Positions 2,962-45,469 of a stretch of 46,538 nucleotides of DNA are shown here, in pieces; positions within the stretch are counted from its first letter, which is position 1, and every line of letters starts with the position of its first letter. The position numbers and the translations under genes are program-made. The notes beneath the pieces are model-generated. The model did no database searches. It was given only the letters and a program-made list of their open reading frames with translations, and was not told the DNA's origin. The stretch comes from Fonticula-like sp. SCN 57-25 (Eukaryota): positions 1 through 46,538 of the forward strand of contig MEDX01000018.1 of assembly GCA_001724245.1 (NCBI GenBank), written 5' to 3'.

Positions 2962-4483
2962 ATGAAGCGTCTGGTCCTCATCTCTGTCGCAGTGTTCTGC
3001 GCTGCGTTTGCGCTCGTAGGGCACGCGCAGAATTATCAAGATCCCTTGGCAGATCCCTACCTCTATGTTCCCGGAAACGATTCAGCGCTGCTTTCTCAAT
3101 GGACCAACATCATGTTTGATCGCATCCGTGGGAACGACTGTACCCCGCCTTCCGCAGGTACGAATTCCTCGCTCTCCCACATTCTCTTTACCAACCTTTG
3201 CTTTCTAGCTCGGAATCTTATGATGCTTCACGTTGCTGGACTTGATGCGGCGATTGCTTCACGTCGTCGTTTCGGTTCTAATGTTCTTGCGTCTCGCGTT
3301 GCCGTTGCCTCAGCCATGCGCACCGTTGTGTCACATCTCTACCAAGACACGCAAGCATCCGTGGACCATGTGTTTCACTACCTGATTCAACACTTGATCC
3401 CCTGCCAGATGCTCGATGACGCTATTGAGGTGGGATACGAGGCCGCCATGGACCTTATTGCGCGCCGACTTCGAGACGGGTCTAACCGTTTCTACTACTA
3501 TACCCCCAAGAACGAGACCTGCGATTATTGGTCTCCCACCAGCGGAAAGCCGTTCTGGGGCGTGCAGTTTGCCGTGGCCAAGCCCTACTCTATGACGCAG
3601 CATGCCCAGTTCCGCGAGGCAGATTTCCCGCGCGCGGGATCCGAGGCGTTTGCAGAGGATCTTCATCAAGTCCGCGAGTACGGTGCAAAGGTTCGTGAAC
3701 CCATCTCTGTTGTTCCTCCACTCAATGAATGTATCTTTAGACGGGCTCGATTCGTACCGAAGACGAATCTGAGATTGCGGTGTACTGGGCCGATGGGCCG
3801 ACGACCTTCACCCCTGCTGGTCATTGGAACGCAATCACACTCGATGTTCTCTCCCGGTCGCAGTTTGACAACCTCACACTCCTCGAGAGGAGCCGTGTGC
3901 TCGCGCTTGTCAACATTGCTATGTTTGACGCCTCCGTCTCAGCGTGGGACATGAAGCTTTACTATGACCGCTGGAGGCCTGTTGACGCAATTCGCTACGG
4001 CGGTTCACGTTGTCCCGGAAGCGGCCTTGTGGACGACCCCGAGTGGGAGTCTTTTGTTTATACCCCAGACTTCCCCGACTATGTCAGCGGCCACAGCACA
4101 TTCTCGGCTGCCGCTGCTTCCGTCCTGCAAAACGTCTTGTGCAGTGACAACGTACGAAGCACTGGGTGGGCGCTTGCCACTACTAACAGCTGTTCCTCTC
4201 TTTTTAGTTTACCTTTAGTATTCCCAGCGAGGTGGACAGCACCAAGTCTCGCACGTATTCTTCGTTCTCAGAGGCGGCGAATGAGGCGAGTTGGAGTCGC
4301 ATTCTGGGAGGTATTCACTTTGAGAGCGCCAGTGCGCACGGTCGCGCCGCGGGCAAGAACGTGGGCGAGTACGTCGTTGCTACCGAGTACACCGATGTCA
4401 CAGCCAATACGGATGCCTGCAACTTGCATTTCAACGCTCCAAACTTTGTTGTTTCATTCTGTCCCAACCCCGCAGAGGAGTAG
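2962..4483 (+). CDS. Secreted vanadium-dependent haloperoxidase-like (PAP2 superfamily) protein, 4 exons
   Basis: Signal peptide MKRLVLISVAVFCAAFALVGHA. Introns at 3158-3208, 3691-3740 and 4152-4207 (all GT-AG; the last has a TACTAAC branch site). The spliced product has TPPSAARNL, YWADGPTTFTPAGHWN and the three vanadate/phosphate-binding motifs KLYYDRWRP, PDYVSGH and SRILGGIHF. Confidence 0.85.
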
Positions 4484-4726
4484 GCTCCTTTTCCAACGCG
4501 CAGCGAGGCGAACGGGCGTATAGCCTGCTTTGCAATTTTTAGCTTTGTATAGTATTTGCAGTATCGCTATCTGCGACACAAGTCTGAATGAACCCAGGTA
4601 CTGTTTAATTATACCGTACTATATTATAAGTGAATCGATGAAAATATATTGAAAAAGCTGTGCGCTTAATACTGGATATTAACAGGCACGCGGGCTAATC
4701 CCACAGTGCGAATCAACACTGCACGC

Positions 4727-7700
4727 CTATGCGGAAAGGTCCACAATGTAAGTCACGAGGTCAATCGGCCGGAGAGTCACGACCACATCGGTTCCGGGCG
4801 GTGACGCCGGTCCGACAGCGTTAAGCAGGGTCAGAGTGTGCTGCTGGACAGTGCCCAAAGCCCAGGGGTCACTGAGGATGTCCTGCAAGGTAACACTGAC
4901 GGGCTGGGAAAGCTCGCTGTCGGCGCCCGTTTCGAACGGGTTGAGAAGGCGAAGCACGACCTGATCAGAGTATGTGTTGCGCGGGCTGAACGAGACGATA
5001 TGCACATTCTCGGGGAGATCCGCCTTGATCGGGCTCAGCGTGGGGTTCAGAATCGGCGTAGTGTCCAGGCCGTAGACAGCGCCGATAGGGAAGTTGAGCG
5101 CGTTGGAATGGCGAACATGGAGGCGAGCGGCCTTTGAGTTTTCTGACACAAGCAGCTTGAAATAGCCGGTGTACACACTGGTATCATCCAGGGGCTCGCT
5201 CATGCCGCGCGCGTCATCGCGAGAGCAGCGGCGATGAAGCATCAGCTCGAGCGTGCCTTCAAAGAGGGACGCAGCACCGTGCGTGCTCTGCGAAGCAACA
5301 GCCACAGTGAAGCCGTCGGCAGACTCGTCGCGAATAAGGGCGCGCGAGACAGCAGGGTAGTAGTTTCCACCGATGACAACACCACGATCAGCATCATCCG
5401 GGCGGCCTTCGGGCAGGTTAACGCGGCGCTGCATCTCGAGGCCGTTGTCATCAGTGTAAAAGACATCGCCGTTGTCAATAGAAGTGGTGAAGCGAGTGAT
5501 AATCTCGTTGTCAGGCGAGAGGGGACCGATCATCGGAATGATCTCCACAGCAGAACCTTCAAGCTCATCGAGACCATGATAAATGCGAATAACCTGGGAG
5601 ACAACACCCGGCACGATTTCCTGCCGCACTTCGGTGACAATGCTGTTGTTCAAAATTTGGAATGAGCCCACGGACCCATCGCCGAGAACCACAGCATCTC
5701 CCTTGGGGCGAAGGATGTACGCGCCAGAAGTCTGACCACCAGTATATGACGTATACTTGAGGAACTCCTGCTTGATATTCACCGGAGTGTTGTTGGAAAG
5801 CAGAGTAATGCTCTCGAGCATCAAGGTATCATCGTTGAAGACAAGCTGAACATATTCGTTCGCAATGGATTCGACGCGAAGCATGGTCTCGGCGATAGGA
5901 ACCAAGCGGTCGCCATGTGCAAGCGCCTTGGCCGGAGTAATCAGATATGTCACATAGCCAAGGCCAGGGAAGGTATCACGCAGGTAGAGTGTCGAGCCTG
6001 AGAAGTCGGTCTCAATAATGAGCGCGGCGTCAGCATCGGCGCCCGTAGCAGCCACCTTGACGGAGACGGAAAATTGGTCACCGAGCGGGATGCTCGCCAC
6101 AGTCTTGCGAGTCCACCCAAGCGGGTTCTGAAGAACAAGGTAAACAGAGCGGCCAGCGGCCAGCTCAGACTGCATGCGCTCGTTGTCGGCAAAGAAAGTG
6201 TCGCCGCCTTCCATGTTGGTCACAAAGGTGCTAAGCATGTCCGCAACAAGCTGACCACCAACCTCAAGACCCTTGTCAATGCGAATATTGTAATCATCAC
6301 CCACGATCTCACGGTGAGTGCCGGTGGTGCCATCGTGGTGCTGAATAACGCTCTCGACGGCACGAAGGCCAAAGAGCTCATCAAAATAGTTGGCAGTATC
6401 CATAGAGTACCGCGCGCGGGCCAACGAGTGAAGCGAATCCGCGGCGCGCAGAAGGCTATGCGCAGTACGCGACTTTGACTTGAGGTTGGGGCGCGACGTA
6501 AAGTAGCCGGTCCAATAGCTCATACGGTTGTCGGCATAGGGGAAAAAGTCCTTTGTAATAGTCTTGCCAGCTGACGCGGGGATCGAGCGGACATGAGCAG
6601 TGTAGTCGGACAGCGTCGAATACCTAGCGGTCGCGTTCAGCTCTTCGCTGTACATGTTGACGGCATCGATCAAGCGATCCTAAAACAAACCGTCAGTACT
6701 TTTAACTAGTCTCGGCTACGAGCAGATACCATGTTCTTAAACATCATGTTGGCGTTCTGGAAAGTGAAATCGCAGCCAAACGGAATAAGGATGTTGTTGG
6801 TCTTGTACGACTTGGCACGGCGGTAGGCTTCGGTGACAAACTCCTGAGCGCGCTCAAAGGCGTTCGACTTGGTCATCTCGCTCGGCGGATCGAAAACGAT
6901 CGGCGGCGGACCGTCACCATAAGGCAGGTTCTGCGTCACACCATGCTCCCAGTTGAAGCCGGTCGGAGTGCAGTAGTGCTCGTCCATCCTAACAAAACAC
7001 GATGAGTGTCTATATACCACAAGCGCAGGCTGCGTCGTACATGTGACTCCACATGGTGTTGCGATCGCCGAGCGATGGCGAGCCCTGCCAAGTAAACTCA
7101 AGGTCCCCTGCAAGCTTCATGGCATCCTGCAAAAACGGACGTAAGAAAGAGAACAGCAACGCGGTAAAGATACGCGCCTTCTCGCGGTAGTCGATGCGGT
7201 TCGTAATGAACGCGTCAAATCCAGTCAGGTTAAAAAGAACGGCCATAGCACCAGAATGGCCGAACGGGTCGATATGCCAGCCAATCGACGGCTTGCCGGC
7301 ATCGTCGAACGTTTCCTGGAGGAACTCGTGACCCAGCGTCATCTGGTCGATGAACTGGTAGTACGTGGGAACCGCCTCGTCGTTCATGCACCAACCGCCG
7401 TTCACAAACTCCAGCTGACCGGCCTGAACAAGCCCGCGCACCTGAGCCTGCTTCTCGGCCGTCTGTTCGCGCCACCAACGAGTGAAAAAAGCCCTACATC
7501 GGACTGTGAGTCTCTCTTCCGTCCCTCACCCCCTGAATACGGTGCCGTACATTTCGACTTCAATGAACTTGCGGTTCGGGTTCGCCGCAAGCGAGTCAAC
7601 AACGCTGTCCAAAATGTACTGAACTTCATACTGCAAATGGTAGTGAGTAACAACACTTTGTGCATGGCTGGGATCGTACAATGTAGTACTCATCAATAGT

Positions 7701-7886
7701 ACGGAGCCATCCAGTGTCGTCGTGAGAGTGAGCCTTCGAGTAGCCAAGTAAGCAAAGCGTGTTTAGGCTCAGTCAGGGACACCGTACCACCAGCCAAATA
7801 TTGAGCTTGTCGTCGGACTGGGCGACCGCGACACCGCTTAGCAGTGCAACGAGGCACGCCAGCGCCACGCCCCGCATTTTGCCCAT
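4727..7886 (-). CDS. MAN2B1: Lysosomal-type alpha-mannosidase (GH38), 7 exons
   Basis: Signal peptide (start at 7886 or 7877). Spliced motifs: AHSHDDTGWL (Zn ligands), LEFVNGGW, WHIDPFGHS (nucleophile), DFFPYAD, YWTGYFTSRP, QHHDGTTGT, FYTDDNG, GNYYP and LELMLHRR. Six introns, one of them GC-AG (7127-7177). Confidence 0.92.
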
Positions 7887-7994
7887 GAGACCGGAAAGCG
7901 AACTGACCTGCAAACAATGATTTTGGCACAATTTGTGAAAGTGCGTGGGCCAATCACCGTCGGGCACCGATTACAGTCATCGTGACTTTGAACC

Positions 7995-10312: not shown

Positions 10313-10887
10313 TTATTGCGAAGCCATGGGGGCACCGGGGGCGCCGAGCTTGCCCTTCTTGGTCTTCTTCGCGAGGAGGTTCTTGTGGATGTGGGGGATC
10401 ACACCACCACCGGCGATGGTGGCGTTAATGAGCTCATCAAGCTCCTGATCACCACGAATGGCAAGCTGCAAGTGGCGCGGCGTGATACGCTTGAGGTGGA
10501 GATCCTTGGCGGCGTTGCCGGCAAGCTCGAGCACCTCAGCCGTGAGGTACTCGAGGATGGACGCAACGTACACGGCCGCATTGCAGCTGACGCGGAAGTT
10601 GTTGATCGCGCGCATCTTAAGGAAGCGGTGCACACGGCTCACAGGGAACTGATATGGGTAAGCAACAGCCCCAACAACAGCACCGGTGTGCGGTTAGCAA
10701 ACGTTGGACGGAATCGGGGGTGATGGCGGGAAACGTACCTGGAGACCAGCGCGCGCAGAGCGGGACTGCGCCTTGGCGCGGGAAGCCGTCTTGTTCTTGG
10801 CACCGCCCTCATGCTTCTCACCAGTCTTACCACCAGCCTACAAAGCGAGTGAGCAGCGCCGTACGTCGTAGAATCACCGCGCACCAT
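10313..10887 (-). CDS. H2AZ: Histone H2A.Z (divergent), 3 coding exons
   Basis: The first coding exon is the ATG alone. The protein reads MAGGKTG...[17 protein letters not shown]...[15 protein letters not shown]...[36 protein letters not shown]. The [18 protein letters not shown] signature is diagnostic of H2A.Z. Confidence 0.93.
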
Positions 10888-11229: not shown

Positions 11230-12281
11230 CAATTTACTATTCCTCGTGGCACTCTGCCTTTCCTTTCCTTCATTCATTCATTGGAGGTCCGATCCCATTC
11301 ATCATGGTCTAGGAAAAGGGTACGAGAATTGTTGACATTGAGTGACGTGATTTCCTGCTGTGCTTGTGGGAGGGGAGAAAAGAGAGTGATGTTACCATAA
11401 CCATGCGTGAGACAAAAGTCGATGAGTTTCCGCAATCACCAAGATCGCTGATTCTCGTTTCTTTCCTTTTTTTTTGTGACTTTTATATTCTGGTCTGCAG
11501 TCCGCCGCTTAACTAACACCCCAGCTGATAGATATATCATTGCTTTGCGCAGTTATGCAGAATGCGAGCGGCGGGTTTATCTGCTTTGGCTAGCGACTAC
11601 GTTTAGGTTCGTTTTATTCTTTCGGTTGTGGGTCCCTGTTCCCTATTTGTTCTGATGAACCAATTGGCATTTGTCTGATCCTCTATGACCGACAAACCCC
11701 AAGCTACCTTAATTTCTTCTGAGCTTTTATCCTTTTTGTCTTCTCTTTTCTTTTGGTTCTTTTCCACGAGTCTCACATTCTTAATTAGCGCCCTTGCCCT
11801 CGCCGATTCGTTACCGCCGTGAGCACTATGAGCTGCTCGTCGGGATAGAGGTATTGTAATATCACACCCTTCGTGTACCATTGTTGATATGATGAGTCAA
11901 TTTGCGTTCGACCGCTCGATTCCGTGACACTATGCCTGGTGTCATTATGCGGGCGAGTGAGGATGATATCAGCAAAACTACTGATCAATAATGGTTGTTG
12001 GGTGTTGGTGAATATTGTTTCTACGATATCCAAGGCACTAATATTCATTATTACTTTATTACTACTTGTCGTACCTTCCTAAATGTTTCTATTCGTTTGT
12101 GTCTGTCGTTTTAATACACATACTGCAAACCACATCTCAGTTTGCACTCTGCCCAAACGTGCATACAGGCAACGACCCAGTCCCAATGTGCGTTCGTGTT
12201 TGCGCACATTTCCTTTCTCCTCCTTTGCCAGCCTCTACGGCGAAAGAACGAGCGTAGACGCTGCGTCGTTGAGTGCGCGGG

Positions 12282-15069
12282 ATGACTACGACCCGGTCGC
12301 GAACGACAGAGAGCGCGCGTCCCCTGACGCGCTCAATAGCGTCAGCGACGGCGGGGCGTGGCCGTGGCGCTGACCTCCGACACTCTTTTGTGGTGGCGGT
12401 GATTGAGGGGCGAGGGGTTAGTGGCAGGGGCGACGTCGGCCTTTGCGCTATCGACCTTATCACGTCAGAGTGCATTATGGCACAGTATGCTGATACTTTG
12501 ACGTACACTCGTACGCTGCAGCTCTTGAACGCGCTGGGCCCGATTGAGATTGTTGTTTGCGGGTCGCCCAGTGAACAGCAACAAGGAAAGACAAAGCTGG
12601 TCAAGATGCTGGAGAACGCGTTTGGAGAGGACACTCTTCAGGCGGTGGCTCGCAAGTACTTTAACGATATGCAAGGGATGCATCTCGTACGGCTCTTGTG
12701 CATTACAGAGAACCTCCCTGCACTCGAGCTGCAAATCAGCCAGCAGTTTTTTACGCTTGCTGCAACCGCCGCGCTATTGCGATACGTCGAAACAACGCAC
12801 AAAGTCGCCTTTATCAACCACACTCTTCGCATTCGCGTGCACAAGCCCGAAGGAACAATGATGATAGGTGCGCTTTTTCAAGAGATTTTGTAGACGTGAG
12901 CGCTCATTTGGGGTGTCAGACTGCAACACTGCCCGCAACCTAGAGCTTGTCATTAACGGCCACAGCGCGCATGACCGCAAACATACTCTCTTTGGTGTGC
13001 TGAACGGCTGCGGAACAGCCATGGGAGGTATGCTAGCTTTCTGATAATCGCGTAATCTTACTTGTTTCTTGCAGCGCGGCTGTTGCGATCCAATCTTCTT
13101 CAACCCCTTGCAGACGTTTCTTCAATCACCGCGCGCCAGAACGCCGTGGAGTGCATTCTTCGCGCTGGGGACTCGCTCTTTGCCCTTCATGATGCGCTCA
13201 AAATGGCACCCGATCTCGACCACCTGGTGTCTCAGCTTATTCAGGTTGACACGCGCACTTCGGCGAGATCTAGTGGAGCGACTACTGCTACTTCCGTCAG
13301 CATGTCAACGACGCCCTCTCATTTGAACGTCCGAGTGGCCGACCGCCATATCACAGTGGCGTTGAACGTCCGGCGAGCGCTTCAGAGCGGTCGCACTATA
13401 CTGGACCTGCTGGATGCATTTGAGACAACCCATGACCCGCTGCTGTCTGCCGTACACCGCGCGCTCTCGGATCAACGCCTTGTCGACTTGTCCGACTTGA
13501 TTGCTGGCGTGCTTTCGGATGAATCTGAGACGGAGACTTTGTCGCACGCATCTCTTGCCTCTCGCCATGCTCGATGTTTTGCGGTTCAAAATGGCGTGAA
13601 CCCGCTTCTCGATGTAGCTCGGCAAACCTACTCGGAGACTGTGAAGGACGTAAACGAGCATGTTGCTGCGCTGTGCGAGGCGTTCACCGATCTGCGGATT
13701 AATCTCAAGCTTACTGCATCTGTTGGGTTTATTCTATCGATCGATAGGAATCCTCGCCAGCTGCCGTCTGTTTTCATCAACCCGGTCGCTAGACAATCGC
13801 ATATCCAGTGTTCTACTATGCAGCTCGTCAAGTTGAACGAGCGGCTGAACGAGATTATAAATGAAGCAATACTGCTATCTGACCGCGTCATTGGAGAGCT
13901 GTTGGACTGCCTTCGCGCCGACGTATCGCTTTTGTACAAGCTGTCAGAGTCGCTGGGGCTCCTTGATCTCTTCGTCTCCCTTGCGCACAATGCATCGCTT
14001 TATGACTACGTCCGGCCAGAGTTTGGCGACGCACTCTGCATTCAGGGGGGCAAGCATCCGATCCGCTACATTCTTGACACAAAGCGACCGTTTGTTCCGA
14101 ACGACACCTTTTGCGACCTCAGCTGCAATTTTCAAATCATCACTGGTCCGAATATGGTACGCGCACGAGATTTCCGAGCCGATATCTAATTGCGCATTGT
14201 GGGATGTAGAGCGGAAAATCAACTTATCTGCGGCAAGTAGCGCTACTTCACATCATGGCGCATATTGGCAGCTTTCTCCCCGCCACTTTCGCGCGCCTTC
14301 GCGTGACGGACAGAGTGCGCATATCTCCTCGCAGCATCATTTTCTATGCTAATCAATGGCCAGCTTTTCACTCGTCTTAGTGACGACGCCGGGGTTGAGG
14401 CCAACGCTTCCACCTTTTATCTAGAGATGTTGGAGATGGCTTCGTGCTTGCAGCATTTGACGCCTTCCAGTCTCGTGATTGTCGACGAGCTTGGGCGAGG
14501 GACTGCGCCGCAAGATGGCCTTGGATTGAGCTTTGCTATCAGTGAACAGCTGCTCTTGTCCCGCGCCTTTACTTTTTTTGCAACTCATTTTTCCTCTCTC
14601 GAGGCGCTCGAGGTCTACCCCAACGTCGTCTCTTTCCAGCTCCAGATGAGCGGTGCCGTTCACGACAGAAGCGAGGACGACAGCGGCGGGATTGACCCCC
14701 ATCAATTTAAGGTGTCGTCGGGATGGTGCCGCGCCGACCGCTACGGGCTCCAGATGGCCAAAACAGTGGGATTTCCTGCAGGCATGCTGCGTGCGGCGGG
14801 CGAGATCGCCGACCTTTTGCTCGCGCGGCGGCCTCAGCTGCTGGATCGCGAATCCATTGAAGGTGGCGGCAGCCGCGCCCGAGCTTCCCTTCAGGTATTT
14901 CACGCACTTTTGCCTGTTTGTTTATCTCATTGTTTCTTCTTTTCTAAAGCTCTGTCAATCGGTCTGCCATCTCCTTGCCATGTGGCCCGAGAGCGGCAGC
15001 CCACAAGAAGACTCTGCGCGCTTGCTCCAAGAACTTCAGTCTCGCGCGCGCGACCTCATCCAGGAATAG
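12282..15069 (+). CDS. MSH4: Meiosis-specific MutS homologue 4, 6 exons
   Basis: VVAVIEGRG...DVGLCAIDL...AQYADTLTY (MSH4-type N-terminus, no mismatch-binding domain I), [38 protein letters not shown], Walker [30 protein letters not shown] and FATHF. Five GT-AG introns restore the frame. The start codon is inferred. Confidence 0.92.
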
Positions 15070-31862: not shown

Positions 31863-31920
31863 GGCGTGATGACCTGTCTCGCAACCGTCCTGTCAAAGCT
31901 GTAATTTGACGCAGTTGAAA

Positions 31921-31990
31921 CGGACCAAAATCGACCAAGACGGACCGAAACGGACCGAGATCGACCAAGACGGACCGAGACGGACCAACT
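31921..31990 (+). repeat. Seven tandem 10-bp units (CGGACCRARA / TCGACCAAGA)
   Basis: The sequence reads cggaccaaaa tcgaccaaga cggaccgaaa cggaccgaga tcgaccaaga cggaccgaga cggaccaact, just upstream of the RADX-like start. Confidence 0.9.
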
Positions 31991-32981: not shown

Positions 32982-33908
32982 ATGGTCGAGTCGCAGGAAT
33001 CGACGGAAAGGCCGCCAGAAGCGGCGAGCCAACCTGCGGCGAATCAGCCTGCGTACAAGGCGAGCCGCGAGCGTCGTCGCGAAGTCATTCGCATCTTTCG
33101 TGAGCTGCTTGGCTCTGACGTTTTCGAGTTAATTTTTCAAGTTCCGACGCATTCCCGCGACGCGCTGGCCGCGAGCATTCGAACGTGCGCTCTACTTTCC
33201 GTTTGATGTGCGCTTCGCTCACCATCGTGATTCAGTGCTGTGCGTTCGTCACCTGTTCTAGGGCCGTACTTTGATGCCGTACCGAACAGTCTCGTGGCGG
33301 CAATCGACGGCGACGGCGACGAGGAGGGAAATGGGCGGAGCAACACCGCGCGCACCTCTTCCACTTTTCTGTTTCTGCGACGCGCGTTCGATCCGCGGTG
33401 GCCCAAGGCGGCTCACATGTGGCGCCCAATGGACGTCTACGAGCACCACGGCGCCCTCCTGCAGCGCATCATGCGAGAGTACGAGTGTTTATTTTTTGTA
33501 TTGCGTCATCTGACGGACCGCGCCGGTAGATCGAGCCAGCCGCTGTTGCGCGGCTCAACGGTAATAGATAGAGCCCCAATGGACGGGGCCTCCAGGTGTA
33601 CGTTTCCCCCACAGCTCTCAATTCTTGTCTTGCTCACCAAAGGTACAGTATCAAGGAAGCGCACGCACGGCGACATGGCCGACGTCAAGGAAGACCATTC
33701 GCATCCGCCCTTTGTGGGAAATTTTTCCGACTTTCCGCCCTCTGCGCCGTTCCCCCTCGACCAGCAGCGCGTGATGCAGCCGATGATGGCCGCGTGGCCG
33801 CAAACCATGATGTCCGCCGCGGCTGCGCAGCAGCAGCAGCAGCAGCAGCTTTTACTTCAACACCAACAGCTAGCTCGGTTCTTTGCTGCCCAGCAGCAGC
33901 AGCAGCTT

Positions 33909-33939
<31 letters not shown>

Positions 33940-34635
33940 GGCAGCAGCACGTTCGGCTGCAGCAGCACTATTATCAGCAGGCGCCCCAACACCAGCAGCA
34001 ACATATTTCTGATCAACAACAGCAGCATGGCTCTTCCCAAGCGGGTCTTCCTCAGAGCAGTTCGATAGAGGGCCGCTCCTCGCTGCCTCGCCGCACATCC
34101 TCACCGCCGGCCATGTCGAGTGCGCCGCCGCCGCAGTGGGCTGGCCAGTTCCCCTCGCTTCCCTCGTCGACCCCAATGATGCCGCTGCCGTCCTTTTCCT
34201 CGTCTCTGATTTCTGCCGCGCCTTCGTCGTCGTCGTCGTCGCCGGCCCCGATGGTTACCGCCGTCAGCTCGTCAGGCGCCGCTCCTCCTACCGCCGCCTC
34301 GCCGTCGCTTGTGTCGTACCTGCGGGAGCCGCAGGTGGCTCGCGGCGACCACGCACAGGACGCGTTCAAGGCGCCGCTCGCGGGCGCAGCGGCGCACTTG
34401 CATCAGCAAAACCTCCTTCAGGCGATCCAGGCGATGCACCCGCAGGACTATTACCACCAGATTCAACAGCAGCGCATGTACGCGCTCGCACTGCAGCAGC
34501 AGGCGGCCGCTGCGGCCGTATATACCGACGCGCAGGGCAAGCAGCAGCAGCAGCAGGTGCAGGTTCTCCAGGTGCCCATGCAGGGCGGCGCGTTCAAGCA
34601 GGGGGGCATCGAGCTGCAGGGGCAGGTGAAGCACG

Positions 34636-34667
<32 letters not shown>

Positions 34668-34685
34668 ATTCTGAACAATCTATAG
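32982..34685 (+). CDS. Polyglutamine-rich protein with a small unrecognised N-terminal domain
   Basis: ATG 32982; an intron after SIRT (GTGCGC...TTCAG) joins to the 33240-34685 frame. Two further probable in-frame introns lie near 33479 and 33598. Several CAG/CAA tracts. Confidence 0.65.
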
Positions 34686-34733
34686 CACAAGGTGGCGTTT
34701 GGCTGGCGGAAATGTTCAGCGCGCGCCTTGGGG

Positions 34734-34753
34734 CCCTTTTCGCGCGAAAAGGG
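34734..34753. repeat. Perfect 20-bp palindrome CCCTTTTCGCGCGAAAAGGG
   Basis: Read directly from the sequence, ~50 nt after the stop of the Q-rich gene. Confidence 0.85.
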
Positions 34754-35343
34754 TTGTTTTAGTCTGTTGATCGGCGGGACACATTTTGTTTGTGTGCCAC
34801 AGTGATCAGTTTTGATTATTATAGAAGGTTTTCGACTTTTTTCTTGCTACTTTTTGCTTGCCAATTTTTTTCAGCCGTCTTGCATTTTTTTGATAGTATT
34901 ACATTGCCTCCTCTTTCGTAGATGCGTTTGTTTAGGGTTTGTTTTGCCTTGTTTGAAGAGACACATATCCTCGATGATTTTGATATTACCTATATCTCAT
35001 TTATTTGATATCATATCCTCAATACTCTTGCTGCTGCGCCAGCTGCAGTATCGATCTCTACTATATCATTCTATATCATACCATGAGTGTATATGCATTG
35101 AAGCATTCCTTGTGCTGCCGAGACTCAATCGGCCTTATTCGATTCCTTGAGGTGGTACCCCACGCTTGGTATATCAATACATATCCATATCTCTGATGTC
35201 GCCCTATCCCGCCGACGCACAGCATCGCTTTTCAGTTTATAGTCGAGCGCATATAATTCACACGGCATTCGTCTCTATTCCACTCTATTAAACTGACACT
35301 CTTTACTGATACAAAATTGACATATTAATCACTTTAATTTTCC

Positions 35344-37431
35344 TTACTCCTGCTCGACGTGCTCGTACGCCTCCCCCCTGCACGCCGCGCGCGCCCGCCT
35401 CGCCACCGGCACCATCGCCGCCACGCAGAGCACGCCCATGAACGCCTGCCGATGACGTCAGCCACCAAAGCCCACGTGGATATTTACGTACCGTGTTCAT
35501 GTAAAAGCGCGCGCGAATGTCCATGTCAAGCGCGCCTGGCCCGGCGATCACTTGCATGACGGCGAGCATCAAAAGGGCCGCAAATGTATTGACGCCAAAG
35601 ATGAGCGCGTATCGCTCATTCGCGACCCTTTAATTGAGTGAGCAAAGAGGCAAGTGGGGGCAAAGAAGAACAAAAGAGAAGCAGGACAAAACAAGATCCA
35701 ATCAAATCGAGATACCATTTGCATACAAGCATATTGATACCACAATCAATGTCCATGCTACATGATAAACGATAAAAGACACACCAAGATAAAAAAGATA
35801 CACGTTAAAGACATGTGTAATAAGCTCCCATTTGCGTACATTTGTGCGATCTTTGCCGCTGCGACGGCGAGCAGGAGGTACATTGTACCCTCAAAGAGGA
35901 TGTATGTAGCGTACGCGGCCCATATGCTCTCGGTGAGCGCCATCCACAGGACCCACCCAAAGGCCGCACCAGAGCCCAGCACGAGCATCGGCTCGGCCCA
36001 CGCGTCCTAAAATGATGTGTCAGCAGAAGCAGTCAAGTAGAGAATATAACAAGTAGATAGTCAAGAGTAGATCAGGTATATACTCACCAATCATACTCAA
36101 ACTTACCAGTCATACATCATACTCATACTCACACTCATACTCATACTCATCAATGAAATTCAAAATACAATAAGCAGTTTCCCTCATCGCTCCTGCCCTG
36201 CGCACGAGTGTCTTTCCCGCCATCAGCGTCGGCACGACCGACCCCGCCGCGCCCGCCAGCCGCCCAACAGAGTCGCAGAACCCGTTGAACGTGACGCTCG
36301 CGTCAATGCTGTACCACACCGACGACGCGTAACCCTCGACCGCCAGCAGACCGCAGAAGGCAAGCGCCCACCAAACAGACCACGTGGCCAGATCGGCCGA
36401 CGAGAATGATGAGCGGAGGGCGCGAGCGTACTCGGCAAGCGCGCGGCGGAGCGGAACGCGCGAACGGTCCCCCGCAACACGCTTATCAGCGCCATCTGTG
36501 CTGACTGTGCTATCGGCGTTGACTGTGGCAGCAGTGCCATCGAATTCTGAACTTTTGGCCCTATCGGCGCGATCGAGATCCGTGCGGTCGCTGATTGCGC
36601 TATCAGTGCCCTCAGCGATGACTGGGCTATCAGTGGCGGCCGGCGCGCCGGGGAGGAAGAGGGACGAGAGGGTGCCGGCGGCAGAGGTGGCCAGCGTGAT
36701 GTAGAAGAGAAGGACAAGCGGCTGGTAGAGGTACGACACGAGGACTTGAGCGAGGATGCCGGAAAGTACGCTACCGAGAAGGACAAGCGCGCGAGTGTAG
36801 CTCGTCTGAAACGAAAATAGCATAGAAAACGTACAAAAGCGTAAGTGAATGTCAAAAACACTCAAACTCGCACGATTCGCTGGTAGTCGTGCTCGTCAAC
36901 GAGCTGGTAGAGCAGCGAAAAATAGCCAACCTCGGTCGCCGTCGACAGCCCAAACGTCACCTGCATGAACTGCATGGCGCCCAACGTCTACCACATGTAA
37001 ATTAGGACACCGACGCGCACGTTATCGCCGCACCTCTCCCCACACGAGCGTGATACGCGTCACCAGATCGCTCAGGGCAAAGATAATCACGACCAGCTTG
37101 TACCCAATGTACTCGGCCGTCGGGCCGACAACCGCGAGAAACACAAGGTAAGAGTACGTCCACACGGGGTATACCTGATTGTTAACCTAGAGGAAAGAAT
37201 AGGCGTGTCAGACCGGCCGTCGATGTTGCCCTTGCTCAGGTGGCGCACCTCGGCCTCCGTCAGGCCCTTGTCGTCGATCAGGTACGGCGTCATGAATGGC
37301 TCCGCTGGGCGAAAGTGCATAACAAACCCAAACAGGCCAAATATGATTGCCACGCGCTTCCAGTCGCGCGGCGGGCGGCGAGGCTGCGTCTGCGCGCCGA
37401 TGCAGCGCTCCTCCTCGTCGCTGTCCGCCAT
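35344..37431 (-). CDS. Reduced folate/thiamine carrier (SLC19 family), 7 exons
   Basis: FGFVMHFRPAEPFMTPYL, VNNQVYPVWTYSY, MQFMQVTFGLSTATEVGYFS, TSYTRA, WSVWWAL and RYALIFGVNTF. Six GT-AG introns. The protein ends EAYEHVEQE. Confidence 0.88.
36111..36150 (+). repeat. Imperfect (CATACT)n microsatellite inside an SLC19 intron
   Basis: The sequence reads catacatcatactcatactcacactcatactcatactcat and accounts for the spurious EYEYECEYEY tail of ORF 36110..36865. Confidence 0.75.
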
Positions 37432-37489: not shown

Positions 37490-39094
37490 ATGGCGTCCGT
37501 GCGTCGGGGACGCCGCGTCCCGGTGGCCGATCTCAAGCGCCGCGACGAGCGCGGGCGCGCTGCTGCGCTTGTCCGCGGCCAGCACCCCTATGGCGTGCAG
37601 CCAACAGGGAACCTTTACATGGCGCCCGATCCGCAGGCGGCTCTTCGGTCGCGGTCCGAGGGCCTCGGGTACTTTGCGATGCTGCCCGACGAGGTAATTC
37701 TGCAGTGCTTGCTGGCGGAGCTGTCGCCGGCCGACCTGCTGAGGCTGGGCAGCACGAGCCGCGCATTCTACGTGTATGCGTCGCACGACGAGCTCTGGAA
37801 GCTCATGGTCATCGACCGGTTCAATGGCGACTTTGATTTCGATGCCACGTGGCGGAGGACATACATGCGCATGTGCGGGGCGACGCTATCAAACGTCCTC
37901 GTACCAAGCCAATTGAACGTACGAAGTCAAACATTTGCTTGTTTTCTATTGTATTTTTGTTACCTTTTTGATGCGTTTTTGATGCTGTTACTACTTTCAC
38001 ACAATATTTCTGCCGTAAACTTACGCCCACTTCAGCTCCCCCCACTGTACTCTGACGTCCTGTTTGACTCTTGGCGCTGCTCGAGCCACGAGCTGCGCCC
38101 CTCGTGGCTTTCTGTCGAGTCGATCCCCCGCCGCAGTGGTCTTTCCCCCGCCGAATTCATCTCCGAGTACGAGTCGCCCAACCTCCCCGTGATCCTCACC
38201 GACGTTGTCCCCTCGTGGCCCGCCTATGGGACGTGGTCGCTTGACTCGCTCTGCGCCGCGCACGGCGACGCGCGCTTCATTGCCGGCGAGGTTCGCATTT
38301 CCCTTTCGCGGTACGCGCAGTACGCGCGCCAGACGACGGACGAGTCGCCGCTGTACATTTTTGACCACGCCTTTGGCGAGACTGCCCCCGCCCTCGCGTC
38401 GGCGTACAGCGTGCCTTCCTACTTTTCAGACGACCTTTTCCGCCTTCTTGGCCCGTCGCGCCCCAAGCACCGCTGGATTCTTGTTGGCCCCGCGCGCAGC
38501 GGCAGCAAGTTCCACAAGGACCCGAACTCGACGTCGGCGTGGAATGCTGTGCTGACCGGGTCCAAGCGGTGGATCATGTTCCCGCCGAGCGTGACGCCGC
38601 CGGGCGTGTTCCCGAGCGAGGATGGCGCGACCGTAACGGCGCCAGTGTCGGTGCTCGACTGGCTTACGAGCTTCCTTGACGAGGCGCGGCGGATGGCCAC
38701 GCCGCCGCTCGAGGCGACCGTCAAGGCAGGGGAGATCATCTTTGTGCCGAGGGGGTGGTGGCACCTCGTCATCAACGTTGACGAGGGCGTCGCAATCACG
38801 CAAAATTACGTCAGCAGGCAGAGCTTGCCGCACGTGCTGCGCTTTCTCAGGGACACGCCAGAGCTCGTGTCGGGGTACAAAGGGGAAGTGCCGCTTTTTG
38901 AGGCGTTCGAGCAGAGGCTCAGGGAGAGCGAGCCCGAGATGCTCAGGGAGGCGCTAGAGAAGGTTGACGAGATGATTGAGCAGGAGAGTAGGGGGGGGCA
39001 CTCGTTGTGGAAGAGGCTAAAGACGGACGGCGATGAGCAGCCGTTCTCTTTCGCATTTGGGGACGACGACGAAGTGGAAGAGGAGAATGAATGA
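37490..39094 (+). CDS. F-box plus JmjC (JMJD6-like) dioxygenase
   Basis: HPYGVQPTGNLY, an F-box (LPDEVILQCL...LW), DESPLYIFD, RWILVGPARSGSKFHKDPNSTSAWN (HxD) and FVPRGWWHLV (third Fe ligand). Probable in-frame intron at 37919-38035. Confidence 0.88.
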   Translation: MASVRRGRRVPVADLKRRDERGRAAALVRGQHPYGVQPTGNLYMAPDPQAALRSRSEGLGYFAMLPDEVILQCLLAELSPADLLRLGSTSRAFYVYASHDELWKLMVIDRFNGDFDFDATWRRTYMRMCGATLSNVLVPSQLNVRSQTFACFLLYFCYLFDAFLMLLLLSHNISAVNLRPLQLPPLYSDVLFDSWRCSSHELRPSWLSVESIPRRSGLSPAEFISEYESPNLPVILTDVVPSWPAYGTWSLDSLCAAHGDARFIAGEVRISLSRYAQYARQTTDESPLYIFDHAFGETAPALASAYSVPSYFSDDLFRLLGPSRPKHRWILVGPARSGSKFHKDPNSTSAWNAVLTGSKRWIMFPPSVTPPGVFPSEDGATVTAPVSVLDWLTSFLDEARRMATPPLEATVKAGEIIFVPRGWWHLVINVDEGVAITQNYVSRQSLPHVLRFLRDTPELVSGYKGEVPLFEAFEQRLRESEPEMLREALEKVDEMIEQESRGGHSLWKRLKTDGDEQPFSFAFGDDDEVEEENE

Positions 39095-39409: not shown

Positions 39410-39423
39410 ATTTGGCGCCAAAT
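39410..39423. promoter_or_regulatory. Palindromic E2F-type site upstream of the BAH gene
   Basis: ATTTGGCGCCAAAT lies ~50 nt before ATG 39471. Confidence 0.45.
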
Positions 39424-39470
39424 CTGGCCAAAGAATCTGTCAAGTCGTAACCAACCCAACCACCCGCCCG

Positions 39471-42055
39471 ATGTCGGCCGAGTGGGTTGGCGCGGTCGAG
39501 CGCGTGGACGGCGACCGCGAGTACTACAGCGCCGTCAAGCTGTACAATGGCGACGTGGTGAAGCTGTGTGACATGGTTGAGCTGTACAGCGAAACGGACG
39601 AGTTTCACGTCGGCCAGGTTGAGGAGCTGTACCAGCGTCCGGGCAAGCCGTGGTCGGCGACTGTCCGGTGGTATTATCGCAAGAAGGATCTTCCCTCGGA
39701 CGTGACGGGCGACGTCCCAAAGGTGTCCTCGTCGCGGCAGCTTTTGCTGAGCGACCATCGGGACCGCAACGTCATCGACTCGATTTCGCAAAAGTGCCTC
39801 GTGCTACAGGGCACGGAGCCGCGCGAGGTGGCCAAGATCGCCGCCATGGAGGAGAAGTACGACATGCGAATCTATTTTTGCAGCCACCAGTTCCTTGTGC
39901 AGGGGCTGTCGGTGCAGCGGTTACCCGCGGGCTATTTGCCGACGCGCGAGGCGCAGATCGACACGGTCGGGGCGCAAGCGTCGGCTGCCGCTGCGGTTCC
40001 GGCAGAGGCGCTCAAGAGCGTGCCGTCGGCCAGGAGGACAAACAATTCGCTGGGCGTTGTGCTCGATGGACTTTCTATGGAGACGGCGCGCAAGACAAAG
40101 GGCGCCGCCAGCAAGGCCGACAAGGACAAGAAGGCGGAAAAGGCAAAGGCCGACGAGGCAGCGAGGGCCGAAAAAGAAAAGGCCGAAAAGGCCGAGAGGG
40201 AAAGGCAGTTAAAGGCCGACAAGGCCAAGGCGGACAAGGAAAAGGCGGAGAAGGAAAAGGCGGCTAGGGAAAAGGCTGAAAAAGCCGAAAAGGCCGCAAG
40301 GGAAAAGGCGGAAAAGGAAATGGCCGCAAGGGAAAAGGCCGAAAAGGAAAAGGCCGCAAGGGAGAAGGCCGAAAAGGAAAAGGCGGCTAGGGAAAAGGCC
40401 GAAAAGGAAAAAGCCGCCAGGGAAAAGGCGGAAAGGGAAAAGGCCGAACAAGCCGCAAGGGAAAAGGCCGAGAAGGCCAGGGCTGATAAGGAAAAGGCCG
40501 AGCGAGACAAGGCTGAGCGGGAAAAGGCCGAGAAGGAAAAGGCTGCAAGGCAAAAGGCCGAACGGGACAAGATAAAGGCGGACAAGATAAAGGCGGACAA
40601 AATAAAGGCCGACAAGGAGAAGGCTGAAAAGGAAAAACGGGCCAAGGAAAAGGCCGAGCGGGAAAAGGTTGAGCGGGAAAAGGCCGAGCGGGAAAAGCTC
40701 AAGGCATTGGTAGAGTCGGCCAAGGCGGCCGCCGCCCTCAAGTCAGCCACGTTGCCATCATCGGCGCCATCTTCAGTGCCGGCGACGGCGCTCTTCAGTT
40801 CGTCGCCCGTGCCCCCGCTAAGCTTTTCCTTTTCTTCGCTTTCGCCGACGCCGCTACCGGCCGCGCGCGCCCCTGAGCGCCCCGCCGCGTCGGCGCTGTC
40901 AGCCTCGTACGCGGCGGCCGCCTCGATGTCCGACGCCGGCGGCGCGGCGCTCTCCGCGGGGCTTTCGGACGCCCTCACGGACGCGGTTCGCGCGAGCGCG
41001 GCCACGCCGCGAAAGACACGGTCCGAGGACGAGATCGTTGGCCTCTTGCAGTCGCCGGGGGCGGGGACGGCGGCCCAACAGGCCATGCAGCAGGCCATGC
41101 AACAGGCCATGCAGCAGGATGTGTCTCAATCTTCTCTGGAGCACGAGAATGCGTCTCAGGAAACTTACGCGAAACAACAAGCGTCTTTGCAGGTGTATAA
41201 AGAACTACAGCAGCAGGCGATGCAGCAGGAGGCGATGCTGCAACAGGCGATACAGAACAAGAATGCAAAGTCGTCAGCGTATCAAATGGCGTTGCAGCTG
41301 GAATACGAGTATCTGCTGAATCGGCGGCAGGAAGCCTTTCAAAAGTTTATTAATGCGACGCAGCAGCACCAGAATGCAATCGCGGCTCAGCAGGCTTATC
41401 AGGCGCGGAAGGCGTCTCAGCAGCTGTCCCAGATTCAACAGCAGAATCAGCAAGCGTCCCAATCGTCCCTAGAGAAGGAGCGTCAAAAGGACGCAGAGTC
41501 CAAAAAGGACAGCGAGTCCACAAAGGAATTAGATTCGAAAAGGGAGAAAGATTCGAAAAAGGCGACTGCCGACGACGATCGGCCATCGACCGCCGCCTCT
41601 TTCGCTTCTTCGTCCTCCTCTTCCTCTTCTTCCACTGCTTCCGCCGCGACCGCCAAGGCGCCGCCGCCGTTCGCCGCGCTGCTGGCCGAGCCTCCCAAGC
41701 GCATGCAGACGATGCCGCGGCCTCCCCCGCCGGCCACTCTGCTCCGCCTGGTAAGCGACGCCAATCCGCCGCGGCCTGCTTCATCATCGACGGCAGCGTC
41801 AACACCAGCAGCAGCAACGGCGTCAGCGGCAGCAGCGTTGGCAGCAGCATCGCCAGCATCGGCGGTGCGGCCCGCCAAGCGCGCGGCCGAGGACGAGATG
41901 GGCTCCGCGGCAAAGCGGTCGCCCGCCAAGCAGGGTTTCCAGCCGCTGCCGCAGGCGAACCAGCAGTTTCTGCAGCACCAGCAGAAGGCGTACCAGCAGC
42001 AGCAGCAGCAGCAGCAGGCCTATCAGCAGCAGCAGCAGCAACAGCAGGCCTATCA

Positions 42056-42086
<31 letters not shown>

Positions 42087-42242
42087 ATTTCTCATGTTGC
42101 CCAGCAGAGGCAGAGCTCCTTTGTGGACGACAGCGATCCCGCGCTGGCGGCCATCGTGACGTTTGAGCGCGTGTGGGGCGCCACTGTGCCGCCGTTCAAG
42201 GACGCGCTCAGCGCCGCGCGAAAGTCTCTTGGGCTCGCGTGA
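39471..42242 (+). CDS. BAH-domain protein with a long E/K/A/R repeat helix and Q/A/S-rich tail
   Basis: YYSAVKL...HVGQVEELY...VRWYYR...LLLSDHRD.N.IDSISQKCLV...YFC (BAH), then EKAAREKAEK repeats, DKIKA x3, QQAM x3 and QAYQn repeats. Intronless. Confidence 0.8.
40250..40700 (+). repeat. Coding minisatellite with 15/30-nt units (EKAAREKAEK, DKIKA, REKAE)
   Basis: Recurrent gaaaaggc(c/g/t) units inside the BAH gene. Confidence 0.85.
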
Positions 42243-44135: not shown

Positions 44136-44387
44136 AACCAGCGGGGTAGCAGGCAGCCAAGCAAGGCTCCAACTGGCAATTCACTAGATTTCAGCTGGAT
44201 TTCAGTTTGCAGTTGCAGATTGAGATTGCAGTTTGCATTATTGAGCCAGGTATTGACCTGAAAGTGTCGAAAACTGAACCAAATCAAAGGCAATTCATAA
44301 CCAAAGCCAATGAAAAGCAACAGGTATCAATGCGGCAGAATTCCATTCAGTTATATATGCAATTTAATACAAGACTCAATACGTTTA

Positions 44388-45469
44388 TCAAACATCCACG
44401 TCATCCTTCCCCGGCTCGTCCTTGCCCGCCGCGCGCTTCTTGGTCGGCGGCTTGCCGTACTTGCGGCACTTGTCCGCGTCGGGAAGCTTGAGGATGAGCG
44501 CTCGTACAATCGGGTCGTTGAGGCCAAACACGTCGGGGCCGGGCGGATTCGAGCGGCTCTCAATGCCAAACTTTTTCTTATTCACTTCCACCAATACAGC
44601 TGCGACAGGTCAGCAGTCGAAGAAAAGGCCGAGGAAAGAGAAAGAGAAAAGGAGACAAAAACAAAAACACTACTACAAGCAAAATATTAGAGTCCTTTTA
44701 TTGTATCGCACCTTTCCATGCTGCTGACGATGACTGCGCCTCGACCGGGTGCTCGACGTCGTCCGCTGGCGTGATCCGAAACTGCGCAGACACATCAGCC
44801 CTCTGCTCGCAGTTAAGTACACAGTGCGCACCATTGGGGCGTCTCCGCCGTCGTAAATTTCGCATTTGTACGTCGTGGTGCGCTTTGGGTTCTTCATGCT
44901 GACGTACCTCCTCGTGCAGACGTACGAGACGGGCCAAATGTGCTTGGGCGTGTGGAACGCGTCCCTATCGTGCACCACGCGCCCAAGCGAGTATACCTTA
45001 AGCTGCGCGCTACCGCTATTCTCTACGTGAATCGGGAACGAGTGCCCGCGAAAGTCCTTTTGTGGCGTGGGCTCAACGAAAACCTCGCCTGCATCGTCGT
45101 CCTCGCCGCTCGACGCGCCAGAAAGATCGTCTGAGCTCCACGCATCGTACGCACGAGAAGAGTCAAGTTGAAGAATTCGCGAAAGTAATGTGTCGTTCTG
45201 AAGGCGGAGGCGGCGCTCCTGGCGCTCCAGGCGGCGCAGATCAACTGACCGATCTACAAACACCTATGCAAGCGCAGGATCAGCACCTGAGCTTGCAGGA
45301 TGCAAAACAGAGATCACGGCAAAAGTGAAAAAAAAAAGCGTACATTCTGGCGCTCGGTTATATCCTTCTGAAGCGACTCCATCTCTACTAAACTCTGGTC
45401 CGCTTCCCTTTCGACGCCGCTGTCCGGCCCAGCAGCAGCCGGGCGCCACTCCACCGCACTGAACTCCAT
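44388..45469 (-). CDS. TBRG1: FYRN/FYRC protein, TBRG1-like, 4 exons
   Basis: N-terminal coiled coil (LLSRILQLD), FYRN (LKVYSLGRV...FH...IWPVSY...YKCEIYDGG..P|FRI) and FYRC (GPDVFGL...ILKLPDADKCRKY). Three GT-AG introns. Confidence 0.75.

Follow-up and report, generated by a model that had tools for sequence, protein, structure and literature searches.

In almost all eukaryotes, the 5′ end of U1 snRNA is constant and A is preferred at the fourth intron position (+4). To our knowledge, only a handful of lineages that break this +4A/U1 rule have been described, with a matching change in U1 solely in Archamoebae. Such lineages offer natural experiments on recognition of the 5′ splice site by U1, U6 and helper proteins.

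Roy and Bowser (2022, bioRxiv 10.1101/2022.06.08.495308) report ‘4Y’ donors in Mamiellales (GTGCGT), Thecamonas trahens and Mastigamoeba balamuthi (GUGCGC), and for M. balamuthi they describe a U1 candidate with the 5′ end ACGUAC, co-evolved with the donors. This species has 2.5-3.4 introns per gene and a GC content of 60.7% (Roy & Bowser, 2022; Zarsky et al., 2021, PMC8136499). Donors are given as GTGCGTG in Ostreococcus (Irimia & Roy, 2008, PMC2483917) and AG|GTGCGT in Micromonas (Verhelst et al., 2013, PMC3879977). Parker et al. (2023, PMC10581693) link loss of METTL16/SNRNP27K in Saccharomycotina to replacement of +4A by +4U, without any change in U1 or U6.

We analyzed the introns of one contig, the window (the whole stretch of 46,538 nt). 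Its organism has a lineage-specific U2-type donor consensus, G-U-R-C-G, of the 4Y class, with a pyrimidine at +4, a free +6, a CTNAY branch and short introns. 4Y donors have already been described in a few protist lineages, and the present organism is a further one; the sources consulted on GTACG/GTGCG-type donors and on Blastocladiella and Allomyces splice sites describe neither a fungal +4C lineage nor this organism.

Donor letters of 52 coding introns

Curation of the contig, partly manual and partly motif-aware, gave 19 gene models, each running from ATG to stop with no internal stop (19/19); 14 of them contain the 52 introns analyzed, a density of 2.7 per gene. The set comprises coding introns only, non-coding transcripts being outside its scope, and the GC content of the gene-dense part of the window is 58-62%. 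The donor pentamers were GTACG (23), GTGCG (17), GTATG (4) and GTTCG (3), with GCGCG, GTATC, GTATT, GTACT and GTACC found once each, which reproduces almost exactly the list drawn up in a first-pass annotation from about 55 hand-inferred introns. Position +4 was C in 46 introns and T in 6 (88% C, 12% U), never A or G, so that the earlier claim that +4A donors are missing was borne out. The same annotation had seen no GTAAG or GTGAG donor, and this too held for the 52 curated introns: the two pentamers occur 4 and 15 times, respectively, on the sense strand within exons and never as a donor. A pyrimidine thus occupied +4 in 52/52 curated donors, and in 36/37 predicted by the donor-blind gene finder described below.

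Around this position, +5 was G in 48/52, +3 was A in 31, G in 18 and T in 3, and +6 was free (C 22, T 14, A 9, G 7). G at −1 was found at 9/12 non-consensus and 20/40 consensus donors, a difference that was not significant as compensation (P = 0.19). The introns are otherwise of the ordinary U2 type: 51 have GT and one GC at the donor, the acceptors are TAG (26), CAG (23) and AAG (3), and 43/52 have a branch-like CTNA[CT] at a distance of 10-36 nt before the acceptor. Median length is 55 nt and mean length 70 nt. U12-type donors are of the extended GTATCCTT or ATATCCTT type with a matching branch box; the sole GTATC donor runs on with TGC and its intron (6680-6729) has a CTGAC branch like other introns, and the minor spliceosome was rejected for it.

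Such a clean GURCG code, in which +4 is C in 88% of 52 introns and never a purine, at about 2.7 introns per gene, is a new test case for co-evolution of U1 and donors. It also has a practical side: in metagenome assemblies, genes of this organism will be mis-annotated by gene finders whose training used GTAAG/GTGAG donors.

Intron calls and controls for chance and circularity

Fourteen junctions in three genes (mannosidase, MutS and IDE) are fixed by homology in gapless conserved blocks. For the GH38 mannosidase (reverse strand), alignment with homologs confirmed 6/6 junctions. Intron 1 (GTACGG, 54 nt, AAG acceptor; 7734-7787) contains an in-frame stop and its junction is gapless against homologs; intron 2 (GTACGA, 49 nt; 7631-7679), intron 3 (GTACGG, 57 nt; 7494-7550), for which an earlier model with a GTATT donor was ruled out by homology, intron 5 (GTACGA, 52 nt; 6989-7040) and intron 6 (GTATCT, 50 nt; 6680-6729) follow the curated model and the homolog alignment. 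Intron 4 (GCGCGT, 51 nt; 7127-7177), the sole GC-AG intron, is in-frame and stop-free, and its 17 residues are absent from homologs.

In the MutS (MSH4-like) gene on the forward strand, 4/5 junctions lie in conserved blocks and were confirmed in the same way. These are intron 1 (GTGCGC, 52 nt; 12868-12919), gapless against 8 homologs, intron 2 (GTATGC, 47 nt; 13028-13074), intron 3 (GTACGC, 53 nt; 14157-14209), which splits the P-loop, and intron 4 (GTGCGC, 49 nt; 14315-14363); intron 5 (GTATTT, 55 nt; 14895-14949), in the poorly conserved C-terminal region, has weaker support. In the insulinase (IDE-like) gene (reverse strand), 4/6 junctions fall within gapless blocks and the remaining 2 are compatible with the alignment. 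The junction of intron 1 (GTACGC, 67 nt; 23778-23844) is within the unconserved N-terminus. Intron 2 (GTACCG, 128 nt; 22411-22538) was placed with homologs, and its later in-phase donors, including GTGAC, were rejected since they would insert 13-24 residues absent from homologs. Intron 3 (GTACGG, 60 nt; 22132-22191), intron 4 (GTTCGT, 50 nt; 21870-21919), intron 5 (GTACGC, 47 nt; 21446-21492) and intron 6 (GTGCGC, 55 nt; 20623-20677) follow the curated model and the homolog alignment.

Other introns on the forward strand include three in the haloperoxidase-like gene: intron 1 (GTACGA, 51 nt; 3158-3208), in-frame, stop-free and not forced, was called on its motif and T-rich composition only, whereas the frame forces intron 2 (GTTCGT, 50 nt; 3691-3740), also found by a signal-free gene finder, and intron 3 (GTACGA, 56 nt; 4152-4207), which has a CTAAC branch. 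The curated model of the receptor-like gene (15547-16754) has seven: GTGCGT, 77 nt (15607-15683); GTACGC, 50 nt (15755-15804); GTGCGT, 61 nt (15899-15959); GTTCGT, 57 nt (16063-16119); GTGCGC, 60 nt (16224-16283); GTACGC, 54 nt (16400-16453); and GTGCGC, 48 nt (16581-16628). The M43 peptidase gene has one, from its curated model (GTACGT, 56 nt; 28498-28553). In the Q-rich gene (32982-34685), intron 1 (GTGCGC, 105 nt; 33185-33289) comes from the curated model, and introns 2 (GTACGA, 51 nt; 33479-33529) and 3 (GTACGT, 51 nt; 33598-33648) are in-frame and stop-free. The JmjC/F-box gene has an in-frame, stop-free intron in a T-rich segment (GTACGA, 117 nt; 37919-38035), and C is likewise the +4 letter of the alternative donor there (GTACC, at 37901).

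Further reverse-strand introns begin with two in the H2A gene: the first (GTGCGC, 47 nt; 10838-10884), from the curated model, lies immediately 3′ of the ATG, and the second (GTACGT, 90 nt; 10649-10738) has a junction that brings the histone fold recognized by Pfam back into frame. The gene of unknown function at 17017-19596 has two introns from its curated model (GTACGT, 152 nt, 19317-19468; GTATGC, 55 nt, 19196-19250) and a third (GTACTG, 177 nt; 18442-18618) that lacks a homolog and is the least certain model of the set; blind gene finders give a rival two-intron model there with a GTCAAG donor. Curated models supply both introns of the M23 peptidase gene (GTACGC, 59 nt, 25767-25825; GTGCGA, 49 nt, 25331-25379) and introns 1, 2 and 4 of the OB-fold (RADX/RPA-like) gene (GTATGC, 47 nt, 31238-31284; GTACGG, 58 nt, 30849-30906; GTATGC, 54 nt, 29692-29745), the third of which (GTGCGT, 51 nt; 30437-30487) is in-frame and stop-free, called on signals only. 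The folate-carrier gene has six introns. Five come from the curated model: GTGCGC, 62 nt (37187-37248); GTGCGG, 46 nt (36988-37033); GTGCGA, 68 nt (36806-36873); and, as introns 5 and 6, GTACGC, 212 nt (35628-35839) and GTACGT, 46 nt (35446-35491). For intron 4 (GTGCGC, 199 nt; 36007-36205) the sole in-phase alternative donor is a GTATG 90 nt downstream; an internal GTAAGT was rejected as it sits behind an in-frame stop. The FYRN/FYRC gene has three introns, again from its curated model (GTACGC, 80 nt, 45264-45343; GTGCGC, 50 nt, 44782-44831; GTGCGA, 112 nt, 44600-44711).

Several gene-finder calls were discarded during curation: a GTAAT ‘intron’ at 7908-7974 whose first exon has just 2 codons, a GTAGG ‘intron’ beyond the stop of gene 1, a 213-nt in-frame deletion within the JmjC gene, a model at 40209-41086 taken as an antisense shadow gene, and a 345-nt intron in the FYRN gene.

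Could the motif have guided its own discovery, or be a local oddity of this contig rather than an organism-wide rule? Curation was partly manual and the sample is one contig. The reading frame does not force six of the 52 introns, which are in-frame and stop-free, although one of these six (7127-7177) is homology-confirmed; and 32/52 have at least one frame-compatible +4A alternative within 45 nt, mostly GC dinucleotides. Against this, the pattern is common to 14 unrelated genes on both strands, it holds at the 14 homology-fixed junctions, and every homology correction shifted the donor toward GTRCG, none away. A scan for hidden in-frame introns within exons gave 0 candidates.

The motif was also recovered when donors were hidden. 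When every donor position was masked, a dynamic-programming gene finder called 37 introns, 28 of them identical to curated ones; 24/37 had GT[AG]CG, against 130/1903 sense GT sites (6.8%; P = 1.4 × 10⁻¹⁹), and +4 was C in 27, T in 9 and A in 1. Even without any signal model, GT[AG]CG was found at 13/35 predicted introns. Nor does chance account for the counts. Exonic sense GT sites have A at +4 in 247/1596 cases, which gives P = 1.6 × 10⁻⁴ for 0/52. For the 328 alternative donors that are compatible with the frame and lie within 45 nt (+4 A 59, C 97, G 89, T 83), the corresponding value is 3 × 10⁻⁵, and 46/52 C at +4 compared with a rate of 0.33 gives P = 1.3 × 10⁻¹⁶. An artefact of calling or of the contig is therefore very improbable, and we are confident that the GTRCG pattern is a real property of this organism's introns.

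Candidate partners of the GURCG donor

Position +3 was A or G in 49/52 introns and +4 was C or U in 52/52, the selection expected from pairing with a U-G dinucleotide. We therefore favor, at slightly less than even confidence, a U1 with G at position 5 that co-evolved with the donors, a reading inferred from the donor letters. Its 5′ end would be ACGUAC in place of ACUUAC, with G replacing the pseudouridine at position 5, and pairing would run G+1:C, U+2:A, R+3:U, Y+4:G and G+5:C. GUACG would then pair perfectly over 5 bp, GUGCG and GUAUG would each do so with a single wobble, and A or G at +4 would be disfavored. The intron-rich +4C precedent, M. balamuthi with its ACGUAC U1 candidate, fits this mechanism by analogy. 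No spliceosomal snRNA genes were found in the window.

It is also quite possible that U1 and U6 are standard and that +4C is set by spliceosomal proteins or at the U6/U5 hand-over, with no compensatory snRNA change. T. trahens (+4C) and five Mamiellales (GYGCGY) have standard U1 pairing sequences according to Roy and Bowser (2022), and Parker et al. (2023, PMC10581693) report ACUUACC and ACAGA as invariant over about 240 yeasts despite switches at +4. Two of the three published +4C lineages thus have an ACUUAC U1, and precedent alone favors ‘no compensation’ by 2 to 1. Moreover, +6 is unconstrained here, so that extended snRNA pairing is not maximized. A standard U1, however, would leave the commonest donor with a C facing pseudouridine at the center of the 5-nt helix; a U-G partner gives a simpler account of donors that never carry A or G at +4 and have A/G at +3; and a compensatory U1 is reported in one intron-rich +4C lineage.

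Besides a variant U1 or U6, the first-pass annotation had proposed a lack of U6 m6A or SNRNP27K, and its account of how METTL16 and SNRNP27K relate to +4A agrees with what Parker et al. (2023, PMC10581693) report. Loss of METTL16 (the U6 m6A writer), SNRNP27K or both would have relaxed the need for +4A, after which the consensus drifted. The reported association between their absence and a lost +4A preference in Saccharomycotina speaks for this, and such a loss is compatible with the other explanations rather than exclusive of them. In those yeasts, however, the alternative state is +4U. Here U did not replace A as the preferred letter (U 6/52, C 46/52), so the link is not directly transferable, and mere relaxation would not yield an 88% preference for C. 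As the explanation of this code, we consider the loss improbable.

A U1 of the kind favored by the donor letters does exist in metagenome contigs. Scanning these for ATACGTACCTG, a gap of 8-30 and ATCANGAAG gave 84 loci, of which 3 (L008, L032 and L082) are identical, full-length U1 sequences with AUACGUACCUG, recognized by Rfam RF00003 (70 bits, E = 3.5 × 10⁻¹⁶) in a comparison to which 11/84 loci were submitted at a threshold of E ≤ 0.01. In a motif check of all 84 loci, only these three had the loop II motif and Sm site together. A near-identical group with the motif comprises 12 loci (L004, L009, L010, L011, L017, L024, L027, L037, L046, L064, L078 and L079); none of the 5 tested with Rfam (L004, L009, L010, L078 and L079) was a U1 at E ≤ 0.01. 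When four runs were compared, X16 and three DNA runs that contain the window's contig (X1, X3 and X4), L008 was covered at 100% identity by X16; X1 had only a 36-nt tRNA-like piece of it and X3 and X4 nothing, missing cover not being proof of absence. Run X16 contains next to none of the window's sequence words, and this ACGUAC U1 thus belongs to another organism.

Among named organisms, the MSH4-like protein has its closest matches in early-diverging fungi (37-41% identity), not in Archamoebae, which counts against the favored U1 mechanism. Of the other proteins, IDE best matches animals (~48%), RPC5 matches vertebrates (~25-31%), and the best named match of the mannosidase is Diphylleia rotans (38%). 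One might suppose an independent origin of C-dominated +4 donors, accompanied by an ACGUAC U1, in the lineage of this organism, itself unsampled and probably related to fungi (holomycotan). We regard this composite reading as rather unlikely; if true, it would add a second natural example of compensatory co-evolution of U1 and the 5′ splice site, in a moderately intron-rich organism outside Amoebozoa.

Likeness to described +4C and +4U systems

Saccharomycotina with GUAUGU donors have likewise lost the usual +4A in favor of a pyrimidine, but theirs is U, a possible partner for the A in the ACAGA box of U6 (Parker et al., 2023, PMC10581693), whereas +4 is C here. T. trahens, an apusomonad and opisthokont relative, prefers C at the fourth intron position as this organism does; it has a standard U1 and is placed among lineages with reduced intron numbers (Roy & Bowser, 2022). 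Its proteins were absent from the best matches of three window proteins in word-filtered searches.

Mamiellales share +4 C, +5 G, a strong CTGAC-type branch motif and a GC-rich genome with the present organism. They are reported, however, to have G at +3 and T at +6 nearly throughout, where we found mostly A and a free position, respectively; they are intron-poor with a standard U1, and the protein relatives of the window are not green-plant-like.

M. balamuthi, a free-living microbe, resembles the present organism in its +4 C, its +3 R and a non-pairing +6 C that is frequent there and the commonest letter at this position here, as well as in moderate intron density (2.5-3.4 per gene vs. 2.7) and a GC-rich genome. 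Its reported donors are GUGCGC, whereas GTACG (23) outnumbers GTGCG (17) here, and its introns average 137 nt (PMC8136499) vs. 70 nt. Finally, M. balamuthi belongs to Archamoebae, whereas the best named protein relatives of the window are fungi, animals and Diphylleia.

Gene models and intron calls

The 46.5-kb window (GC 49–62%) is a eukaryotic contig, and its sequence is present in DNA runs from metagenomes with the labels bioreactor, wastewater, aquatic and fungus. Pfam matches on long open frames outlined a gene-dense stretch, with genes on both strands, and identified haloperoxidase/PAP2-like, GH38 mannosidase, RPC5, histone H2A, MutS homolog, insulinase and CID proteins, M23 and M43 peptidases, eIF4E, an OB-fold protein, a folate carrier, a JmjC/F-box protein, a BAH protein, a phosphatase/hydrolase fusion and a FYRN protein. 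Rfam found one snoRNA in the window and no spliceosomal snRNA, at either the gathering threshold or E ≤ 1. Positions 1–2960 (where GC is lower, 49–51%), 31600–32980, 34690–35340 and 45470–46538 were without coding potential under a model trained on the contig.

An exon-chaining gene finder, whose coding-potential model was trained on long open frames, was free to place introns at any GT/GC...AG; without any splice-signal model it predicted 35 introns, of which 13 start with GT[AG]CG. A donor-blind version, with acceptor, branch-site and intron-length models added and all donor positions masked, returned 37 introns, 28 matching our final set at both ends. GT[AG]CG stood at 24 of the 37, compared with a base rate of 6.8% (130 of 1903 sense GT sites within gene spans; P = 1.4e-19). 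The +4 letter in this prediction was C in 27 cases, T in 9 and A in 1. The sole +4A call, GTCAAG, came from a competing model of intron 18442–18618 (−), the least certain of the set, in a gene without homologs.

Doubtful regions were then curated by inspection in three frames, giving 19 gene models, all with clean ATG-to-stop translations: 14 genes hold 52 coding introns (median 55 nt, range 46–212) and five hold none. Most introns (46/52) are forced by a frameshift or in-frame stop. The other six are in-frame and stop-free, five of exactly 51 nt (3158–3208, 7127–7177, 30437–30487, 33479–33529 and 33598–33648) and one of 117 nt (37919–38035); six is many among 52, and retention would add just 17 or 39 residues. 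Scanning all exons revealed no hidden in-frame intron, defined by a negative coding score with a good acceptor and branch site. The H2A gene, which we take to resemble H2A.Z, has an intron (10838–10884, −) immediately after its start codon (10885–10887; ATG/GTGCG...). In the BAH gene (39471–42242, +), a long lysine/glutamate/alanine-rich repeat leaves an antisense frame open (40209–41086, −); the gene finder scored this frame as a gene, and we rejected it as a shadow.

Homolog alignments provided an independent check on three genes. Against relatives of 30–44% identity, all six mannosidase junctions align without gaps, those of the single GC-AG intron and of the GTATC intron included. For MutS, strong conservation surrounds four of five junctions, one being within the P-loop, and the fifth lies in a variable tail. 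For insulinase, four of six lie in gapless blocks, one beside a length difference of 1–2 residues and one in the unconserved N-terminus. Conservation-driven corrections always shifted the donor towards the consensus: GTACG replaced GTTTG at H2A intron 2 and GTATT at mannosidase intron 3. A metagenomic mannosidase relative (P0167, 42% identity) has an insertion of 25 residues precisely where window intron 5 (6989–7040) lies, which looks like an intron left unspliced in that gene call. The insertion begins M-C-V, implying a GTG(C/T)GT donor, so the relative may share the +4 pyrimidine.

A donor code without purines at +4

The 52 donors comprised GTACG (23), GTGCG (17), GTATG (4), GTTCG (3) and, once each, GCGCG, GTATC, GTATT, GTACT and GTACC. 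By position, +3 was A in 31, G in 18 and T in 3; +4 was C in 46, T in 6 and never A or G; +5 was G in 48/52; and +6 was C in 22, T in 14, A in 9 and G in 7. Since 15.5% of exonic sense GT sites have +4A, the chance of finding none in 52 is 1.6e-4; taking the 328 frame-compatible alternative donors (18% +4A), it is 3e-5. For the excess of +4C, P = 1.3e-16. Relative to dinucleotide expectation, GTACG was 2.35-fold and GTAAG 0.55-fold across the window. Sense GTAAG (4) and GTGAG (15) do occur inside exons, but none is used as a donor. A CTNA[CT] branch motif precedes the acceptor in 43/52 introns. The first-pass annotation had described GTRCG-dominated donors that never carry +4A, and these results thus confirm that observation almost to the letter. 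We regard the donor code as both genuine and pronounced.

Outside coding genes, Rfam matched a SNORD16-like box C/D snoRNA at 11885–11987 (+; 45.7 bits, just above gathering) and, weakly, a SNORD24-like one at 11381–11455 (+; 29.6 bits, below gathering). The weak match lies between the H2A and MutS genes, where 1.4 kb lack coding potential, and is enclosed by a possible host intron of 181 nt (11320–11500) that starts GTACGA. The nearest GT..G sites upstream of the SNORD16-like gene are GTGAGC (11819) and GTCGGG (11839), so a +4A donor in its non-coding host transcript is possible. Shortly upstream of the start codon of eIF4E, a 34-nt GTACG...CTGAC...CAG segment (27819–27852, −) has intron signals but falls below the curated minimum of 46 nt; it may represent a 5′ UTR intron or have arisen by chance.

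U1 and the pairing of +4

In standard splicing, U1 places a pseudouridine, and the U6 ACAGA box an A, opposite +4; either should favour A or U over C at that position. In the window, +3 is A or G in 49/52 donors and +4 is C or U in 52/52, the pairing partners of U and G, respectively. A U1 5′ end of ACGUAC, with G at position 5 and co-evolved with the donors, would explain this pattern: GUACG as commonest, GUGCG as second, the tolerance of GUAUG and the absence of +4 purines. We tentatively lean towards such a U1 from donor pairing. The leading alternative, which we rate nearly as probable, is a standard U1; of the three +4C lineages described so far, two have kept it. Loss of METTL16 or SNRNP27K, also proposed in the first-pass annotation, predicts the wrong +4 letter for this organism.

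Scanning metagenome contigs for the 5′ end predicted for this U1, together with the conserved motif of loop I, yielded 84 loci. One, L008:401–566, is a full-length U1 (Rfam 70 bits, E = 3.5e-16) that begins AUACGUACCUG and carries G at position 5; it is identical in L032 and L082. Thus, U1 genes with an ACGUAC-type 5′ end occur in environmental eukaryotes. A tRNA gene lies ~160 nt upstream of the L008 U1 on the opposite strand. The public run X16 covers this U1 fully at 100% identity but contains next to none of the window, so, judged by read coverage, it belongs to another organism. This U1 could be the Mastigamoeba-type one described in the Roy and Bowser preprint (2022, bioRxiv 10.1101/2022.06.08.495308), or a relative. 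Twelve near-identical AT-rich loci (L004, L009, L010, L011, L017, L024, L027, L037, L046, L064, L078 and L079), from many metagenomes and with the two motifs 27–28 nt apart, are not U1 judging by Rfam, which was run on five of the 12.

Relation to known +4 pyrimidine lineages

The closest named proteins, all distant, are animal for insulinase (~48% identity), vertebrate for RPC5 (25–31% over full length) and Diphylleia rotans for mannosidase (38%); for the MutS homolog, exhaustive searching with HMMER gave MSH4-like proteins from Mucoromycota, Blastocladiomycota and Chytridiomycota (37–41%). We can only guess at a deep fungus-related lineage; if so, it would be a +4C lineage beyond the three in print.

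In yeasts, switches between +4A and +4U are tied to METTL16 and SNRNP27K, and neither U1 nor U6 varies; the portions of that paper used here do not describe +4C (Parker et al., 2023, PMC10581693). Ostreococcus has GTGCGTG donors outside chromosome 2 (Irimia and Roy, 2008, PMC2483917), and Micromonas prefers AG/GTGCGT (Verhelst et al., 2013, PMC3879977). Roy and Bowser (2022) handle ‘4Y’ donors as a class, to which the window's donor code belongs. They report standard U1 in Thecamonas trahens, which prefers +4C, and in Mamiellales, with GYGCGY donors, and GUGCGC donors with a U1 candidate ACGUAC in Mastigamoeba balamuthi. At 60.7% GC, the M. balamuthi genome carries 3.4 introns per gene (Zarsky et al., 2021, PMC8136499), compared with 2.7 per gene in the window. 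In both, donors frequently carry a non-pairing +6C, and the ACGUAC U1 that we propose for the window organism would be the solution reported there.
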